NCBI GenBank assembly: GCA_000934665.2
Contig: KZ538179.1
Coordinates: forward strand, 1 to 64,000
DNA: 64,000 nucleotides
Origin: Catajapyx aquilonaris
Lineage: Eukaryota
Reading direction: 5' to 3'
In this document: positions 9,701 through 46,400 of the stretch, piece by piece
Numbering within the stretch: position 1 is the first letter of the stretch
Layout of the letters: every line of letters begins with the position of its first letter
Notes under the pieces: generated by a model
Databases searched by the model: none
Told to the model about the DNA's origin: nothing
The model's input: the letters and a program-made list of their open reading frames with translations, nothing else
Program-made: the position numbers and the translations under genes

Positions 9701-10966
9701 GGAAGGAGGAGGTAGATGCCCTCATATGTTGTCTGGTGCATTTTTTGTCTCTTGTCTTGGTATCATTGTTATGTGTAGGTGCTAACTGTTATGTATTCAT
9801 TTTTGGTACAATAATAAAATATTGCTTTCATGACTTCTAGACGAGTAAAATTGTTCCAGACATATTCATATGCCTGGTTGCACCAACAAAATTACCGGTC
9901 CGATAGCTCCTAATGGACAGATAGGTAGACCTTTCAACATGTGCTATTGGTCCGTTAGGAGCTATCGGACCGGTAATTTTGTTGGTGCAACCAGGCAATA
10001 GTGTTTTCCCAGATCTGGTAAGTATGGGTGTTATCAGGAGTGGTGTTATTATTGGCAAAATATCTTGTCTGTATCATCGGAGTAGGTGTAAGCCGAATCA
10101 GTGGCGGATCTATGGGGGGGGGGGGGGNNNNNNNNNNNNNNNNNNNNNNNNNNNNNNNNNNNNNNNNNNNNNNNNNNNNNNNNNNNNNNNNNNNNNNNNN
10201 NNNNNNNNNNNNNNNNNNNNNNNNNNNNNNNNNNNNNNNNNNNNNNNNNNNNNNNNNNNNNNNNNNNNNNNNNNNNNNNNNNNNNNNNNNNNNNNNNNNN
10301 NNNNNNNNNNNNNNNNNNNNNNNNNNNNNNNNCCCCCCCCCCCCCCCCCAACAACGATGTCTAGATCCGCCCCTGAGCCGAATTCTACGTGGTTCAGGCC
10401 TATCTGGTAGTGAAGGGGTTAAGCTCAATTGTGATACCCCCAAGACACTGTACCATAGCCTGCTTTCAATTCCTAGCATAAAGACATGTCAAAAAATCCC
10501 ACTGTATCTTTACACCGTACAAAACGCTCCATATGTTTCTTCACATCTGTTGGCATTCCACTGTGGCTTGTGCATTTAAGTAGTTAATGTATGACAACAT
10601 TATGACATACCAAAAGATATGTGCGCTTGTCACTTGATAGCTGGACTCCTGAATTGCATCACAAAATTCTGCAAGCAAAAAATTTGCCAGCTTGTATATG
10701 CTCCGAGAATTTAAGCACTTTACTAGTTATTGCCAGAGAATGAACATGTGGCAGATTCAGCTGCAGCCTTATTGTGTTCCACATCGGCACTGATTTGCCA
10801 TTTGGCAAATGTCAAACCCATGCAGTGGCCAACAAGTGACATTCACCTTTCCAGATGCGGTACCGCCAGAGACCCCGATGAGGAAGGGTGTCTTGGTCTC
10901 GTACCCGTTGTACACCTTAGTCCCATTGGCCATGCCGCCACCGGTGGTGCTGCCCGTCTCGCTCAT
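3771..10966 (-). CDS. UCK: Uridine-cytidine kinase; exons 10847-10966, 8089-8248, 6916-7012, 6705-6850, 6531-6628, 6420-6468, 3771-3949
   Basis: Motifs [92 protein letters not shown] and [10 protein letters not shown]...SRPH*. All junctions are GT-AG with consistent phase. An alternative in-frame ATG lies at 10993. Confidence 0.95.
5949..6100 (-). CDS. UCK: Alternative (proximal) terminal coding exon of UCK
   Basis: Acceptor TTTTTCCAG with the same phase as the distal last exon. Translates (V)[49 protein letters not shown]. Confidence 0.8.
8673..9145. mobile_element. piggyBac-like MITE (TTAA-CCC...GGG-TTAA)
   Basis: TTAA on both sides. Subterminal inverted repeat CTACGTAGGTGGCGCCTGAGAGGCTCCAA / TTGGAGCCTCTCAGGCTCCACCTACGTAG. 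Confidence 0.75.
9871..9997. mobile_element. Palindromic MITE with 3-bp ATA target duplication (possibly PIF/Harbinger-like)
   Basis: TGCCTGGTTGCACCAACAAAATTACCGGTCCGATAGCTCCTAA and its inverse. ATA at 9868-9870 and 9998-10000. Confidence 0.75.
10099..10375. mobile_element. hAT-type MITE spanning the assembly gap
   Basis: TIRs CAGTGGCGGATCTA / TAGATCCGCCCCTG. Perfect 8-bp TSD AGCCGAAT (10091-10098, 10376-10383). G and C homopolymers flank the Ns. Confidence 0.85.
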
Positions 10967-22779: not shown

Positions 22780-26479
<3,700 letters not shown>

Positions 26480-31481: not shown

Positions 31482-32324
31482 ATGAAGGACTGTGCAGTAA
31501 CTGGCAAGATGAAACCTGAAGACAGTAGGGGTGAAGAGTCAAGGGGAGGCTGTGCAGCCGAACTCACCACTGAGCAGCAGGCTCACCTACTGCATCAAGA
31601 CTCCCGCTTGGTTCCCGCATTCAAGGCTCAAAAGTTGGAGGCAGAGGCTCAACGTAACTGGGACCTCTTTTATAAGCGCAATGAGACCCGCTTCTTTAAG
31701 GACCGCCATTGGACTACAAGAGAGTTCCAGGAGCTTGTGGAAAGTGACCCAGGAAGAAAGATATTGTTGGAGATTGGATGTGGGGTTGGAAACTTTGTAT
31801 TCCCATTATTGGAAGAAGGGCTGAACCTACGAGTCTATGCATGTGACTTTTCACCTAGAGCAGTTGAGTTCGTGCGCAGCCATCCTTTATATAATGAGAC
31901 TATGATCAAAGCTTTCCAGTGTGACTTGACCAAAGATGAGTTACAGCTGGAAGGGAACCTGGCTTGTATTGCGAGTCTAATATTTGTATTGTCGTCCATT
32001 CATCCGACTAAGTTCAGTGATTGCTTGAAAAAGATATGGGACTCTGTTAAACCGGGTGGGATGGTCATCTTTAGAGATTATGGCCGCTATGACATGGCTC
32101 AGTTGAGATTTGGACCAGGGAGCAAAATAAGTGACAATTTCTATGCTCGCCAAGATGGAACGAGAGTGTACTACTTGACCACGGAAGAGGTTGATAGATT
32201 GTTCACTGATGCAGGATTTGTCACCCATGCTTTGAGTTACGTGCATAGAAGGACTCTGAACTTGAAGGAAGGGGTTGATGTCCCTAGAATTTTTGTGCAA
32301 GGAAAGTTTCTCAAGCCATCCTAA
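31482..32324 (+). CDS. METTL6: tRNA N3-methylcytidine methyltransferase METTL6 (single large coding exon)
   Basis: NWDLFYKRNETRFFKDRHWTTREF, LLEIGCGVGN, YACDFSPRAV, FRDYGRYDMAQLRF, FYARQDGTR, VPRIFVQGKF. The acceptor TTGTTGCAG lies immediately before ATG 31482. Confidence 0.96.
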   Translation: MKDCAVTGKMKPEDSRGEESRGGCAAELTTEQQAHLLHQDSRLVPAFKAQKLEAEAQRNWDLFYKRNETRFFKDRHWTTREFQELVESDPGRKILLEIGCGVGNFVFPLLEEGLNLRVYACDFSPRAVEFVRSHPLYNETMIKAFQCDLTKDELQLEGNLACIASLIFVLSSIHPTKFSDCLKKIWDSVKPGGMVIFRDYGRYDMAQLRFGPGSKISDNFYARQDGTRVYYLTTEEVDRLFTDAGFVTHALSYVHRRTLNLKEGVDVPRIFVQGKFLKPS

Positions 32325-32558: not shown

Positions 32559-32707
32559 TACAGTGTGGAAAACCAAACCGCGATCTGACGTCATCAAGGT
32601 TGCCATGGAAATACCCTCTCACAACAGTATGAGTAAACAATGTCAACAAAAAAGGAACAATGTAAGAAACAATGATGTCAGATCGCCATTTCGTTTTCCA
32701 CACTGTA
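32559..32707. mobile_element. Tc1-like MITE
   Basis: TACAGTGTGGAAAAC...GCGATCTGACGTCAT / ATGATGTCAGATCGC...GTTTTCCACACTGTA. Confidence 0.75.
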
Positions 32708-32780
32708 AGTGTCCGTAACTATTTTATAATGGCTTTCTTAAGCTGAGTGACTCTGCTCATGTTTCTGCACTGAATCAGCA

Positions 32781-32858
32781 TTCAATGATGACTTTCTTTG
32801 CTACTCTTGACAGTTTGGGTGACGACACTCCTACCACCAATATAATAAAACTGAGAAT
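32781..32858 (+). ncRNA. SNORD76: Box C/D snoRNA, U76/SNORD76-like, copy 1
   Basis: C ATGATGA 32785, guide TTTGCTACT-C, D' TTGA 32807, C' GTGACGA, TACCACCAA, D CTGA 32851; terminal stem ATCAGCA/TGCTGAT. Antisense to 28S UUGGUGGUAGUAGCAAA. Confidence 0.88.
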
Positions 32859-33590
32859 TGCTGATTTCAGACAAAAAGGATTGTGTGCATATTAGTCCCA
32901 GCACAGAGGAAACTGGATCTGTCCTGATACTGGCTCACTATTTTGTTGTTAAGGACAGCCTTGCCAATCTAGATAGTTGAATGACTTCAGGTCAGCATGG
33001 ATGAATTCTGTCGGTGTGAAACAATGTAAAATGACAGCACCAACAGCATTCTTCAATGCTGACCTGAAGTCAATCAGCATTCGACTGATATCTGTAATGG
33101 GCAAAGAGTGGGGGCCAGTTCTGGAATGGTTCCATACTCTAAATAGTGCTTTGTAATTGAACCCAATGAGGCATAATTTCTGTTTTCATGTCTGTATTTA
33201 TTTTTCTAGGTAAGTGCAAGTTAGCCTGCAAGGGTTGTGGTCAAATACAAAGGTTAGTTTACTGGTTTCTACTTAAATTTGCATAGAGCCTGTCACACAT
33301 GCAAACACTTGTAATGGCAACAAGAAAAAAAGGAATAGTGATCCATCATCTTTGAATGAAAAGGAGAAATAACAATATTGTGAAAAAGGGCAAACCTAGT
33401 AGGAAGAGTGGAACGTGCTTTTTAGCCATGAGTTGCAGTAACCCTGAAATTAGTAGGTTTGTTGTCCTTACCCATACCCTTATAAATTAAAAGAATATCC
33501 CTTAAAAGGCAACAGGTTCATTATGAGGTTTATTGTTGTCCTTGCAATGTGTTTCTTGTGAAATAATCTTTGCCTAGGGTGCAATATCAG

Positions 33591-33667
33591 CTGACATGAT
33601 GTCTGAATTTTTATTATACCAAAAGTGGCACTGAATTTAGTGATTGAAATGTATTATACCTGATCAT
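33591..33667 (+). ncRNA. Box C/D snoRNA with 28S guide TACCAAAAGTGGC, copy 1
   Basis: C ATGATGT 33596, guide 33617-33629, D' CTGA 33631, C' GTGATTG, D CTGA 33660; flanking stem ATCAGC/GCTGAT. Confidence 0.8.
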
Positions 33668-33848
33668 GGCTGATGTGCACCCAGTGATCTGATGTTTCAC
33701 ATGGGGAAGTGACAAGTAATACAATAACCATTTTTCAAATTTGCAGATGGAGCAAACTGAAACGATGCAACTAAGGAAACTTCTGTAAGCCATGTAGGTT
33801 CCTTCATTTTAATTTGAAAGATATACTGTAAATCCATTGTGCAGGAAA

Positions 33849-33928
33849 TATCCGTGATGTCATTCTTTGCTATTCTTGACTGCTTGGTTGATGAGTTCTC
33901 AATTACCACCAATATTTAGACTGAGAAT
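33849..33928 (+). ncRNA. SNORD76: Box C/D snoRNA, U76/SNORD76-like, copy 2
   Basis: C GTGATGT 33854, guide TTTGCTATT (would form a G-U pair), D' TTGA 33876, C' TTGATGA, D CTGA 33921; stem CAGGAAAT/ATTTCCTG. Confidence 0.82.
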
Positions 33929-34110
33929 TTCCTGAAAGTGATCAATTTTGGGTGTAAAACTTCAATATTACATTGTGTGTTGTATGCTTCAGGGTTCATC
34001 GTGTGCAATCTCTGCTGACGGCTTTCATTAGGTGAGTCTAGTGGACTTTCAAATGTTATGAAATGCTAAAATCATATGGTGATATGATGTTCAGACATAA
34101 CAAATATCAG

Positions 34111-34189
34111 CTGACATGATGTCTAAATTTTTATTATACCAAAAGTGGCACTGAATTTACAGTGATTGAAAAGTATTATATCTGACCAT
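34111..34189 (+). ncRNA. Box C/D snoRNA with 28S guide TACCAAAAGTGGC, copy 2
   Basis: C ATGATGT 34116, guide 34137-34149, D' CTGA 34151, C' GTGATTG, D CTGA 34182. Confidence 0.8.
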
Positions 34190-34372
34190 GGCTGATTTGC
34201 ATCCAGTAACCTGATACTTCACATGGGGGAAGTGACAAATAGTACAATAACAGTTTTTCATATTTGCAGATGGAGCAGAACTGAAATGATGCAACTAAGG
34301 AAACTTCTGTAAGCCATGTAGGTTCCTTCATTTTAATTTGAAAGAAATACTGTAAATCCATTGTACAGGAAA

Positions 34373-34450
34373 TATCCGTGATGACATTCTTTGCTACTCT
34401 TGACTGCTTGGTTGATGAGAATAATTACCACCAATATTTAGACTGAGAAT
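34373..34450 (+). ncRNA. SNORD76: Box C/D snoRNA, U76/SNORD76-like, copy 3
   Basis: C GTGATGA 34378, guide TTTGCTACT-C, D' TTGA 34400, C' TTGATGA, D CTGA 34443; stem CAGGAAAT/ATTTCCTG. Confidence 0.88.
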
Positions 34451-34629
34451 TTCCTGAAAATTTTAGTGATCAATTGTGGGCTTAAAACTTAAATATTACA
34501 TTGTGTGTTTTATGCTTCAGGGTTCATCGCAATCTCTGGGTGCAATCACCCGGTGTGCAATCTCTGCTGACAGCTTTCATTAGGTGAGTCTAGTGCACTT
34601 TCAAATGTTATTAAATGCTAAAATCATAC

Positions 34630-34701
34630 GGTGACATGATGTTCAGACATTACCAAAAGTGGCACTGAATTACAGTGAGGATCTTATAAAACCTGATCAC
34701 C
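34630..34701 (+). ncRNA. Box C/D snoRNA with 28S guide TTACCAAAAGTGGC, copy 3
   Basis: Perfect stem GGTGA/TCACC, C ATGATGT 34636, 14-nt guide 34650-34663, D' CTGA 34665, C' GTGAGGA, D CTGA 34693. Confidence 0.85.
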
Positions 34702-35457: not shown

Positions 35458-35627
35458 TACAGTGTTGGACATTAATCGAGGCATACTGCTAGCGACATCT
35501 TCCGAAGCGGCAGAAGAAGGAATCTTGCTCGCCTGGCTTGCTTGCACTATCCTTATCTTCGATTCCTTCTTCTGTCGCTTCGGAAAATGTCGCTAGCAGT
35601 ATGCCTCGATTAATGTCCAACACTGTA
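35458..35627. mobile_element. Palindromic Tc1-like MITE (TA-CAGTG...CACTG-TA)
   Basis: Arms are nearly identical to those of the copy at 25416-25574. Confidence 0.88.
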
Positions 35628-35857
35628 CACCTCAGACTATTACTAGAGGCCACCAGAGTGTGAAGCAAGAAGAATAAAACCTTAGCCTTACTGCACAATG
35701 TTGATGCAGTTTTTGTGTAGGACACTGTACTTATGTGATGTCAATTTTTCTATGTTGCTACATTTCAAGAACTTGGAGAGCAAAGTAGGAGACAATGATC
35801 AGGGTAAAAGCTCGTTTAATATTGCTTATGATGCAGTTTTTATACAATATTGTGTAC

Positions 35858-35936
35858 GGAGCAATGTGATGAACTTCTAGTTGGTTTGATTAACCATGAT
35901 TTTGCATGTAATGCATTAGCTCTGGCTGATTGCTCC
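35858..35936 (+). ncRNA. SNORD44: Box C/D snoRNA, U44/SNORD44-like (18S Am166-equivalent guide)
   Basis: Stem GGAGCAA/TTGCTCC, C GTGATGA 35866, D' TTGA, C' ATGATT, guide ATTAGCTCT-GG before D CTGA 35926. Antisense to 18S UAGAGCUAAU; GCATGTA upstream also matches 18S UACAUGC. Confidence 0.82.
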
Positions 35937-36606: not shown

Positions 36607-37870
36607 TTACCTGGGCTTGGTCCATTTGCGGCATTGCATAACACTCACAAACGTACTTCGTATTTCAGCACTGCACAAGCAATACACATAGAAGTTAGCT
36701 GCAAAGCTGAGAAGCTCCAAGTCATTAGAGGTGGCCCGGAATATCTGGAATCCCAAGTCGTCCTCCATGTTTTCAGTGTATAAGATTGACAGAAATGCGG
36801 CTGGGGTTGTGCATGATATGAAAAGTGCTATGATCCCCAGCATTATCCTCAAGAGTCGTCTCTCTTCTGGACTCTGCTTCCAACGTGATGGCCTTCTCGA
36901 TGACGTTGACGAGTGTGTTGAACTAGCACGTGAGGCAAGTCCTGCCAAGGACGTCATTGGTATTGAAGCACTGACTGTGTGGACTGGGGATTTTTGGGGC
37001 TGAGGCAGTCCAGGCACAGAGCAATCAGAGGAGGAGGCAGAATCCTGTGGGGCTGAGGGTGGGGTGGCGCAACCTTCCCTTAGGCGCCGTCGTCGCTCAG
37101 TGACACTTCGGAAGTGGGAGAGGATGAGTGCATTGAGAACAATGAGACTGACTAAAGGCAAAAATCGCATGAGGGACTCGCTGACCCACAGGTACGCCTT
37201 CCACCACTGCTGTTCAGTCACCTGCTCGTTGTCCATCACACCCCACATTTGCCACGTATCTGTGCCATTGCTATAAGAGAAGGGATTTGTATTAGCTTAG
37301 TGAGTATCTCTGCTCAGCAATATCCACTGAGTTACCCACAATTCAAGCTTGGTAATGTCTCCTTTCAATTTATTGTTTTACTTACCTGATGCTTACAACT
37401 TTCCTGTACCAGCAGAGGGGTGTGTTGAGGACCACCCCTGCTAAAAATGCAGCTGCTATGTATCTGTGTGCACTGGCTAAGTTGTGCCTGTGTGGAAACC
37501 GTGTAGGCCTGGCCACAGAGAGGTATCTCTCAACAGTCATCTCAATAATCAGGAAGACAGACGTGGCAGAGAAGCAGTTGATAAGTGGCAGCTCCAAATG
37601 GGCTCGAAAAAAGGCTCCAGCGTAGCTTCTCTCCGAATAGATATCAAGAACGTCCATGAGCAAGGCAATGGAGTGGAGCAGGGCCAGGAGGTTTGCAACA
37701 GCAAGGGCCAAAAGATACCGATACATGACTCCACCACGCAGGTGGGGCCTTGTCAGCACCACCAGGTTCAGCGTGTTTCCCACCAAACCACTGCCCATAA
37801 TTACTGGAGCAACCACCCCATAAGCTATCCATTTCACATGCTTTATGGCCTCATCATGTGGTGTTGACAT
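36607..37870 (-). CDS. Class A (rhodopsin-like) GPCR, FMRFamide/sex-peptide-receptor-like orphan; exons 37386-37870, 36607-37270
   Basis: Seven hydrophobic segments: GLVGNTLNLVVLTR, YLLALAVANL, MTVERYLSV, RFLPLVSLIVLN, FISCTTP, ANFYVYCL. The stop overlaps an AG|GTAAGG, so a further exon cannot be excluded. Confidence 0.88.
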
Positions 37871-38088: not shown

Positions 38089-38160
38089 CTCCCCGGCGGG
38101 GAATCGAACCCCGGTCTCCCGCGTGACAGGCGGGGATACTAACCACTATACTACCGAGGA
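38089..38160 (-). tRNA. trnD-GTC: tRNA-Asp (GTC)
   Basis: TCCTCGGTAGTATAGTGGTTAGTATCCCCGCCTGTCACGCGGGAGACCGGGGTTCGATTCCCCGCCGGGGAG forms a full cloverleaf and is followed by a TTTTT Pol III terminator. Confidence 0.97.
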
Positions 38161-43415: not shown

Positions 43416-46400
43416 ATGGCAGACTCCGCTGGGAACTGGTGCCTGATCGAGAGCGATCCGGGAGTGTTCACCGAACTCATACGGGAATTCGGTGAGCATC
43501 GCAATTATTTAGAACCTGTGCAATGGCAATTATGGGTAGTCGCAGGGACCATGGTCTGGTTCAAAATGGGCTGAATGGCGTTCTTTATTTACCCAGGTGT
43601 CAAGGGAGTTCAAGTTGAGGAGATGTGGACCCTTGATGACGACCAGTTTGAGAGTATCAAGTAAGTTGTCTGATTTTGGAATGACTGAATTATTGTTCCT
43701 AATGATTGACTTCCTTTGTCAGGCCAGCCCATGGACTCATCTTCCTGTTCAAGTGGGTCCAAGAAGATGAACCTTCTGGGTCTGTTGTCCAGGACAGCCG
43801 ACTGGAAAAAATATTTTTTGCTAAGCAGGTACCACAGTTTTAAAGAAAAGTTATCAACACATGAATCCTTCTTCTAAGTGGAAGGAATTCTACTTTCTCA
43901 GCTTAATTTCAGCAAGCACCTTCAATATGTCATTTTCTGACCATATTTCTGACCATATTCTTGGTTACTTTCTGTAATTTGAGCTTAATGTGATGAACCG
44001 GCTACATGTGACTTGATGAGAAAGATTTTAAAATTTAACTTGGATAGTTGGATATGACCCTGACTCATCAATTTCTAGACTTATTTGATTTCAGGGAATT
44101 AAAATATCATATATATGTAACATATTATTGCTTAAAAGTTGTAAGTAACAACTATTGAAAATTGAGGCACAAATTAACACACTATGAGTGCCTGTATGGG
44201 GATATGTTATTTTTAGGTGTGTGTACTGTATATCAAAAATGTTATGGTACAGGGTGATTCTCTCGAATGGAAACCCAAACATTCCTCAATAACTTTTTAA
44301 CTATGGTATGGTTCCCAATGAAAATTGACATGTACTTACCTTGTATCATGCCAAACAAGGTCTGACTAAAGAATATACCAAAAGTGGTCCCCTCCAGCAT
44401 CCAAAGTGTTTTAAATGCGAGTCTGCATATTGCCGAAGACTCCTGCTGATTCCTACCGGGGATTGCACTCATCCCCGCCGGCCAGCCTACTTGGCGGGCG
44501 GGCATCTCAAGGCAACGGGTGCCACCCCCATTGTGCATGCTCGGAACGGGGGCCAATCGGAGGCGTCATGGTAACAATACGTCTTGAATACGTCGCAGTA
44601 ACAATGGACGGGGGCCAATAGGAAGAGGTGGTGGCAACAATATGGGGGCGAACCAATCAGAGGGCTTATACACACAACGCAAGCATTTTAATATTATAGA
44701 TTGGGCTTAACTTGTGTCCTTAACCATCACCCCTTTATATAGGGAATAATTGTCATGATGTATGTATGTGTATGATTGCAGGTGATCAACAATGCATGCG
44801 CAACCCAAGCCATCTTGAGCATCCTTTTGAATTGTCAGCACCCGGATATAGAGTTGGGAACCACCTTGGGGCAATTCAGGGAGTTCTGTCAAACCTTTGA
44901 TGCTCACATGAAAGGACTTGCCCTCTCCAATTCAGAAGTTATCAGATCTGTCCACAACTCATTTGCCAGGTTTGTTGCTATTGTAGTGTATAGAATAAAA
45001 TATACTGCAGCAGACAATAAATTAAGAGTGAATTGTTATGATTTTGGATGTTGGGGATTGGAGAAATGAAATTCTGACATGTTTCACCTCTTGTAATTTA
45101 GATATTATTCTGAGAGAAAATTTAGAAAGTCACTTGNAGAGAGAGGGAGAGGGGGAGAGAGAGAGGGAGAGGGGGAGGGAGAGGGGGAGAGAGAGAGAGT
45201 GTGTGTGTGTGCACGTAATATTGTTGATCATTAATTGAATGGTAGTAAATCATTTCTTAACCCTCGGGTGGTGATGTGGGCACTTTTTGTGACCAACGAC
45301 ACTTTTTTTGCTATAACTTGGAAAATTTAGCACATTCAAGATTCATCTCTGAGAACATTTGTGTTTGACTATTTCTGTGATGAATGACGTTTAGTTTAAA
45401 TTTTATGAGCAAATAGCACGACCAGGAAAAAATTAATTAGGCGGCAATGCGTAGTTGGGACCAAGATCTGGTCTGGCGGCTCCTGGTGGCATCCCAGGCC
45501 ACCTAGGGATGGAATCCCCCTACCCCCGGGAGTTGGGCCAGACTGATTTTCTTTAAGATTTTTTTTCTGATCGTACTATTTGCTCAAAAAATGTCAACTA
45601 AACGCTATTTGTCATAGAAGGAATCACACTATGATTGTCTCAAAGGTGAAGCCCAAATGTGCTATATTTCGCCAAATATAACAAAAAATATAGCTTGATC
45701 ACAAAAAGTGCCCACGTCACCGGAGAGCGAACATTTCGCACATCACCGTCCGAGGGTTAACGCCCAGATGGGAGTGGAGTTGAAGTGTACTTAGAATTTG
45801 AAAGAATTATCTGGAGCATCAAGGATTTGTCACAGTTGTCTGCTACGCTGCATTACTGACTGCATGCATCATTCAATGAGAGGCACAGGATTACAGTATA
45901 AGTTACTTGACTCTTTCAGGCAGACCCTTTTTGAATTTGATTCGAAATTGGCAGCAAAGGATGAGGATGTGTTCCACTTTGTGGGCTACATTCCAATAGA
46001 TGGCCGCCTGTATGAGCTGGATGGCCTGAAGGAGGGCCCCCTAGACCTTGGCGCCATTTCTCCTGATGTAGACTGGCTGGACATGGTTCGGCCTATCATT
46101 GATAAGAGAATTAAAAAATACAATGATGGAGAAATTCACTTTAATCTCATGGCCCTTGTGCCAGACCGAAAGGCTACATACCTCAAGAGACTGGCAGAGA
46201 TTCAAAAGGAAGTTGAGGTGTGTATGATACTGTGATAAAAGGGGATTCACATGGATATCACACAACCAGTGCTAAATTTATTATATTTGACTGTTTATCA
46301 AGGCTTTCATATCATGTGGTATGACCACACGTTTCATGATACCTCCTTAGATGGATGAAAGCAATATGGTGTTGTGTGTTTGTGCTATAATTATTGTTCT

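Follow-up and report, generated by a model that had tools for sequence, protein, structure and literature searches.

Lineage-specific small nucleolar RNAs (snoRNAs) of the box C/D type are common. In domain II of the large-subunit (LSU) ribosomal RNA (rRNA), the described guide closest to the case reported here is U38, and the 2′-O-methylated (Nm) adenosine of the U38 type has been placed at fly Am1347, human 1858, yeast 1133, Arabidopsis 1143, Xenopus 1515 and Dictyostelium 1370, as given in the available part of the work by Sklias et al. 2024 (PMC11014333). Here we report a computational analysis of a three-copy family of box C/D snoRNA-like genes located on the plus strand of a DNA stretch of 64,000 nucleotides (nt) from Catajapyx aquilonaris (GenBank assembly GCA_000934665.2, contig KZ538179.1, positions 1 to 64,000), a stretch that will be called the window in what follows. 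We gave the family the working name of snoRNA X. From its sequence features, snoRNA X is apparently a real family of box C/D guide genes, of an ordinary kind as genes go, for which the predicted target in 28S rRNA seems to be an undescribed one.

Three exact matches of the guide string TACCAAAAGTGGC occur in the window, at 33617, 34137 and 34651 of the plus strand, one in each copy of snoRNA X. When up to two mismatches were allowed the number of matches rose to eight, against a mean of 1.95 in shuffled sequences and with none of 100 shuffles reaching eight; the two non-exact matches that were inspected out of five (at 44376 and 48329) showed no snoRNA boxes. The identical block common to the three copies extends over 21 nt, TACCAAAAGTGGCACTGAATT. 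Copy 1 (33586-33674, plus strand) has a C box at 33596-33602, a guide upstream of the D′ box (D′ guide) at 33617-33630, the D′ box itself at 33631-33634, a C′-like box TGATTGA and a D box at 33660-33663. Its ends can pair through an inner stem ATCAGC/GCTGAT and through an outer stem GGGTGCA (33577-33583)/TGCACCC (33676-33682) just beyond the ends of the gene, and the computed fold, in which the long external stem forms, has a minimum free energy of −32.5 kcal/mol (z −2.47), a stability equalled by 1 of 200 shuffles. In copy 2 (34106-34196, plus strand) the C box lies at 34116-34122, the guide at 34137-34150, the D′ box at 34151-34154 and the D box at 34182-34185, again with a C′-like box TGATTGA and with the inner stem ATCAGC/GCTGAT of 6-7 base pairs (bp) retained. 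Copy 3 (34630-34701, plus strand) is the most compact of the three, with a C box at 34636-34642, a guide at 34651-34664, a D′ box at 34665-34668, a C′-like box TGAGGA, a D box at 34693-34696 and a terminal stem of 5 bp, GGUGA/UCACC. All three copies have a C box AUGAUGU and a D box CUGA at a distance of 61-70 nt from each other, a D′ guide of 14 nt and a D′ box CUGA followed 6-8 nt downstream by the C′-like box; their D-box guides, on the other hand, are not alike. Altogether, the sequence features that define the box C/D class are found in snoRNA X, namely the C and D boxes, a terminal stem, the D′ and C′ boxes, and a pairing of more than 10 bp, following the position 5 rule, with LSU fragments of other organisms.

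The relationships among the copies can be read from the alignments. Copies 1 and 2 show 98% identity over 57 nt with a spacing of 520 nt, and they are contained in a tandem repeat of ~520 bp, whose segments are spaced 520-528 nt apart and have identities of 87-100%. The C box (7/7) and the guide plus D′ box (18/18) are identical in all three copies. Outside these elements, copies 1 and 3 coincide in 5/15 positions of the spacer between C box and guide and in 17/26 of the segment between D′ and D, and the spacer of copy 3 shares 4-5 of 14-15 positions with those of copies 1 and 2, against 25/25 in the boxes and the guide. A gene that drifts everywhere except in its boxes and its D′ guide shows the pattern predicted for a functional D′ guide under selection. 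A truncated 5′ end from a snoRNA of the copy-3 type (34078-34101, plus strand), made of GGTGAT, a C box and then TCAGACATAAC, abuts copy 2 on its upstream side; it was recognised by alignment and through a second repeat, D2, in which the region 34001-34104 upstream of copy 2 matches at 93% the region 34553-34656 upstream of copy 3. On this alignment, the remnant is the mark of the tandem-duplication junction. The same comparison indicates that copies 1 and 2 are recent duplicates and that copy 3 is an older paralogue, sharing with them no more than its boxes and its D′ guide, since the right breakpoint of the recent duplication lies inside a gene of the copy-3 type. In the simplest reading, the ancestral order would have been an X gene of the copy-1 type, an exon, a SNORD24-like gene, another exon and an X gene of the copy-3 type. 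An older duplication would have given rise to the copy-1 and copy-3 types, and a recent tandem duplication would have later doubled a unit of ~520 bp made of one X gene, a pair of exons and one SNORD24-like gene, its right breakpoint falling within the copy-3-type gene.

Regarding the target, the 28S motif was scanned in prokaryote assemblies that contain contaminating eukaryotic ribosomal DNA (rDNA), and the pairing was computed on these fragments of other organisms. At least 40 loci were obtained in prokaryote assemblies and one more from viral contigs, with 27 distinct flanks among these 41, and all six fragments that were tested corresponded to LSU_rRNA_eukarya of Rfam. As a side observation, many prokaryote assemblies and metagenome-assembled genomes carry short contigs of eukaryotic LSU rDNA as contamination (L047-L086). 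The target stretch in eukaryotic LSU rDNA is GCCACTTTTGGTA(A); of the 41 loci listed, 38 have T at the one variable base and three (L060, L071 and L077) have C. With the three C-type fragments, the X guide forms contiguous Watson-Crick pairs, 13 for copies 1 and 2 and 14 for copy 3, and with the T-type fragments L054, L075 and L086 the pairing is equal with one G-U. The helix begins at guide position 2 and leaves guide position 5 opposite the A of GCCA, as demanded by the D′+5 rule. Ten other guide-like strings run through the same script reached at most 12 pairs, with 1-6 G-U. In the available part of a study on yeast ribosome assembly (PMC6300602), the 25S residues A1120, A1129, A1130 and C1141 are named around helix 39, and all four base identities fit the rDNA when A1120 is taken as the target, which puts the snR61 site A1133 at +13. 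Judged by this register, the target adenosine corresponds to yeast 25S A1120; it belongs to the helix 39 region and lies 13 nt upstream of the U38/snR61 site. The same place in 28S is also a published probe site for mouse and human 28S (PMC10374870, in its available part).

A preliminary description of this DNA had already proposed three C/D snoRNA copies, amplified by duplication, that keep the guide-A-CTGA string in diverging surroundings in the case of copy 3, and this is what the full box set and terminal pairing of all copies, the ~520-bp tandem repeat and the contrast between box and spacer identities have now borne out. Its reading of the guide as a 13-14-nt antisense to 28S, directed by the D′+5 rule to the A of GGCCA at 13 nt upstream of the U38/snR61 adenosine, was likewise confirmed with the eukaryotic LSU rDNA fragments of other organisms and fits the yeast register in the accessible part of the source.

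Metagenomic data were then scanned with a pattern made of a C-box core, the guide and CTGA, in which the register is fixed. The scan detected 46 loci, 25 of them with the match inside an open frame of at least 150 amino acids, and most look like chance matches in coding DNA; this count was not used statistically, as the size of the collection, and hence the chance expectation, is not known. Fourteen of the 46 loci were searched against Rfam 15 with nothing at threshold, and the viral contigs scanned for the guide gave no match. A full C/D snoRNA anatomy was found only in two of the 46, the unrelated environmental eukaryotic contigs L026 and L020. In L026, the C box, guide and D′ box are followed by an internal hairpin, a C′ box and a D box, and the terminal stem measures 9 bp; the snoRNA sits just after the GT that follows an open coding exon, which may resemble the start of a lysyl-tRNA synthetase. 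L020 carries four tandem copies ~190 nt apart. Upstream of these four copies, a further C/D-like unit (ATGATGT ... CTGA) was observed at 1335-1390 of the plus strand of L020, which suggests that the snoRNAs of this environmental eukaryote are clustered there in a polycistronic unit. GC contents are 0.69 for L026 and 0.61 for L020, both guides are the A variant, which fits a U in the target, and no convincing rRNA partner was found for the second guides of these environmental candidates. Four more loci (L001, L003, L031 and L037) were considered and rejected as snoRNAs: they have some box motifs but no terminal stem of at least 4 bp in the scan. The identity of register of L026 and L020 with X is by construction, since the search pattern had fixed it. 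Nevertheless, both loci point to dedicated guides for this adenosine outside arthropods, and either common descent or convergence would be compatible with a guide shared with X.

The searches for a previous description of the family or of its site gave the following panorama. In the whole window, Rfam 15 at gathering thresholds recognised only a tRNA. When E values up to 10 were accepted, snoRNA X matched SNORD36 (22.3 bits), snR78 (19.9), SNORD79 (16.4), SNORD98 (16.3) and sno_ZL8 (14.6), in all cases at the level of the boxes only. A full-text search of the literature with the guide letters retrieved no snoRNA paper, judged by title, among the matches listed, one of which was a list of 28S probes, and the combination of the guide letters with the word snoRNA gave unrelated papers only. 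No guide like that of X was present in the supplement of the Ostreococcus snoRNA catalogue, the Plasmodium catalogue contained only the A1133 equivalent and no "1120", and the main text of a preprint on fly S2 cells had neither "1334" nor "1347". In the table of Sklias et al. (PMC11014333), as far as it is available, the row of the U38-type site is directly preceded by that of fly 1269/yeast 1056, so no Nm is tabulated at the A1120 equivalent; the accessible part of the supplement holds no rRNA or guide letters. These results agree with the preliminary description in that no known family could be assigned (none in Rfam at threshold) and in that the target is not a human or yeast site, with the other four species of the available table alike. 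Its suggestion of a lineage-restricted guide, in contrast, is not established and looks doubtful in view of the complete snoRNAs with the same guide in L026 and L020.

With all these data, we propose that the X copies are probably intronic box C/D guides that direct fibrillarin, through the D′ guide, to the 2′-O-methylation of the A1120 equivalent. Each snoRNA would be trimmed from its intron after splicing and would bind the box C/D proteins Snu13, Nop56, Nop58 and fibrillarin. The 13-14-nt element upstream of D′ would pair with 28S at GCCA(C/U)UUUUGGUA(A), and the adenosine opposite guide position 5 would be placed in the fibrillarin active site and 2′-O-methylated; this part of domain II, around helix 39, is the binding place of uL16/Rpl10. 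For the X system, expression, processing, assembly of the ribonucleoprotein, identity of its own 28S at the site and methylation are all predictions of the sequence analysis. Several observations weigh against this proposal. The C box of X ends in U, whereas the consensus RUGAUGA ends in A, and its D-box guides had no convincing rRNA partner among partial LSU fragments of other organisms and one 3′ end of a small-subunit rRNA. In copy 2 the outer stem is gone at the duplication junction, and the fold is at the level of shuffled sequences (z −0.28, with 73 of 200 shuffles equally stable). The match to 28S rests on the conservation of the site, given that the fragments come from organisms other than this species. 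Moreover, the available table of Sklias et al. (PMC11014333) does not list the A1120 equivalent as Nm in human, yeast, fly, frog, Arabidopsis or Dictyostelium, and that work reports 31 of 75 fly sites predicted in the literature as unconfirmed, which means that a prediction from pairing alone often fails. The lack of methylation in the six mapped species and the rate of unconfirmed fly sites would also favour the main rival reading, in which X is expressed and pairs with pre-28S at helix 39 but does not methylate it, acting as a transient folding chaperone or remaining a silent guide. A pairing factor would be conceivable there, as the Mak5 helicase reshapes the H39 region of yeast pre-60S particles prior to the arrival of uL16, and A1120 is accessible to dimethyl sulfate in these particles (PMC6300602, in its available part). 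The same source presents helix 39 as the Rpl10 (uL16) contact to which Mak5 gives access. We regard a chaperone or silent guide as unlikely, however, because X has the exact register of a methylation guide, with pairing from position 2, a canonical CUGA as D′ and a nearby C′ box, and L026 and L020 keep this register, though the search pattern imposed it.

Tandem duplications leave unexpressed relics in the explanation that comes next, which holds that some or all of the copies are dead and that the identity of their guides reflects recent copying and not selection. The likeness of copies 1 and 2 is indeed uninformative on selection, as they are 87-100% identical across the ~520-bp unit, and both the loss of the outer stem in copy 2 and the truncated copy-3-type 5′ end at 34078-34101 speak for this explanation. 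Against it stand the old divergence of copy 3 from copies 1 and 2 with boxes and guide still intact (25/25), the retention of both k-turn box pairs and of a terminal stem in all copies, and the position of all three D boxes 73-84 nt upstream of a candidate acceptor. We consider this explanation to be quite improbable; taken one by one, copies 1 and 3 are unlikely to be dead duplicates and copy 2 is possibly one. A chance origin of the 28S complementarity within an AT-rich repeat has nothing in its favour beyond the short length of the element, and is hardly conceivable for 13-14 contiguous Watson-Crick pairs in exact register beside CUGA, in three copies with the full box set, and with a number of near-matches in the window that was reached in 0 of 100 shuffles. 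A last alternative concerns the name of the family and leaves the proposed mechanism unaffected: X may have been described already in an arthropod or algal catalogue, snoDB, snOPY or FlyBase, since the occurrence of the same guide in L026 and L020 makes prior cataloguing possible. This we consider a real, if lesser, possibility, to be set against the Rfam 15 results (nothing at threshold in the window or in the 14 of 46 metagenome loci, and box-level matches only at E up to 10), the six-species table with no Nm row for the site in its available part, the retrieval of unrelated papers only with guide letters plus snoRNA, and the negative Ostreococcus supplement.

The methylation-guide reading is accompanied by a suggestive genomic context. 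SNORD24-like genes alternate with the X copies on the plus strand, all with scores below the Rfam threshold of 41 bits and with both guide elements aligning to SNORD24 (RF00069): copy a (32780-32858; 29.9 bits, E 0.012), which shows a long external stem in its fold, copy b1 in the first tandem unit (33849-33928; 26.3 bits) and copy b2 in the second (34373-34450; 32.1 bits, E 0.0072). Further downstream, a Z102/R77-like snoRNA (35859-35935, plus strand) scores 34.3 bits with snoZ102_R77 (RF00359; threshold 40, E 0.0026), with both guide elements aligned and a 7-bp terminal stem GGAGCAA/TTGCTCC; its host gene is probably that of X. Two putative short exons of the plus strand separate the snoRNAs, one at 33747-33784, between X copy 1 and SNORD24-like b1 (flanks TTTGCAG/GTAAGC; duplicated at 34270-34308), and another at 33993-34031, between b1 and X copy 2 (flanks GCTTCAG/GTGAGT; duplicated and lengthened at 34521-34583). 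By subtraction of coordinates, a candidate acceptor AG follows the D box of every X copy at a distance of 73-84 nt, and a spacing of about this size between D box and acceptor is typical, and optimal, for intronic C/D snoRNAs whose processing depends on splicing. Altogether, the locus is apparently a multi-snoRNA host gene with one snoRNA per intron and short exons, its transcript being deduced from the splice motifs.

Other elements were observed around this putative host gene. An inverted repeat of ~30 bp, with TGACGTCA (at 32586) as part of it, was noted at 32560-32705 of the plus strand, immediately before a GTAAGT donor at 32705; this region may represent the host gene promoter together with the first exon. 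An almost perfect hairpin of ~89 nt (32983-33071), with perfect end arms of 16 bp, lies between copy a of the SNORD24-like genes and X copy 1, and had as its sole Rfam match a weak one resembling plant microRNAs (24.1 bits versus 80). A long and almost perfect inverted repeat with arms of ~70 nt at 35460-35640, weakly similar to mir-5890 on both strands (26.4 and 22.4 bits versus 54), may be what is left of a transposon, or else a hairpin RNA. A tRNA-Asp (GTC) is encoded at 38089-38160 of the minus strand (60.6 bits in Rfam, also detected by ARAGORN). As for protein-coding sequences, a single-exon open reading frame (ORF) for a METTL6-like methyltransferase (31482-32321, plus strand) has named matches that are all from arthropods, with 56-64% identity, and a large exon of the ER chaperone BiP (22780-24393, minus strand), ending in KDEL, has arthropods as its named matches with at least 85% identity over nearly the full length, as befits an arthropod window; the ORFs at 36607-37248 and 37382-37870 of the minus strand resemble, by eye, a membrane receptor. 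The window contains 206 N, with a gap of ~200 N at ~10100-10300 that has a G-rich flank on one side and a C-rich one on the other, and runs of 68 X residues appear in the ORF translations.

What the family would mean depends on the adenosine it points to. It is possible, though we would not count on it, that the A1120 equivalent is a genuine 2′-O-methylation site that had escaped notice, absent in the six mapped models and served by dedicated guides in multiple copies, both in an arthropod and in GC-rich eukaryotes unrelated to it. If so, the site would be either an ancient eukaryotic modification that has been lost repeatedly or a position that has been gained repeatedly, and a guide of the X type would have to alternate with the U38-type guide on overlapping pre-rRNA. 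A methylated site would also represent an added modification in the helix 39 region, where in yeast Mak5 remodels and uL16 later docks (PMC6300602, in its available part), and would imply that other lineages use sites of the conserved core that are missing from the maps of model organisms. Since lineage-specific C/D snoRNAs are so frequent, the gain from X itself would be incremental. Independently of its target, the locus offers a clean example of how a snoRNA family grows, with an old pair of paralogues and a recent tandem duplication that left half a gene at its breakpoint.

Among the known systems, the non-coding multi-snoRNA host genes of the UHG, GAS5 and SNHG type in animals are the ones that the X locus resembles in architecture: its introns apparently hold a single snoRNA each, its putative exons are very short and free of a long ORF, and different guide families would share one transcription unit, the difference being that the host transcript of X is deduced from splice motifs. 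SNORD36 (RF00049; yeast snR47) gave the best Rfam score of copy 3, 22.3 bits for a threshold of 30, and the likeness lies in the C box, the D′-C′ spacing and the D box; the consensus guides of SNORD36 align with neither guide of X, and copies 1 and 2 are absent under this family, which leaves X outside it. In vertebrates, SNORD36 copies and SNORD24 reside in one host gene, RPL7A, as X apparently does here with SNORD24-like genes. SNORD38/U38 (yeast snR61, fly snoRNA:CD16) is, like X, a box C/D methylation guide for the same stretch of LSU domain II, and did not appear among the Rfam matches of X at E up to 10. The pairing regions of SNORD38 and X presumably have a few bases in common. The X guide pairs upstream of the SNORD38 region and selects another adenosine, the yeast A1120 equivalent, with the SNORD38 site (yeast A1133, human A1858, fly Am1347, in the available sources) located 13 nt downstream, so that X does not fall within SNORD38. 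The snoRNAs of L026 and L020 differ from X in their GC-rich, non-arthropod contigs (61-69% GC), in the lack of similarity beyond boxes and guide, and in their organisation, which is a single intron in L026 and a polycistronic-looking array in L020; in common with X, the intronic snoRNA of L026 and the tandem ones of L020 carry the full set of C, D′, C′ and D boxes, together with the core of the same D′ guide in the same register beside CUGA.

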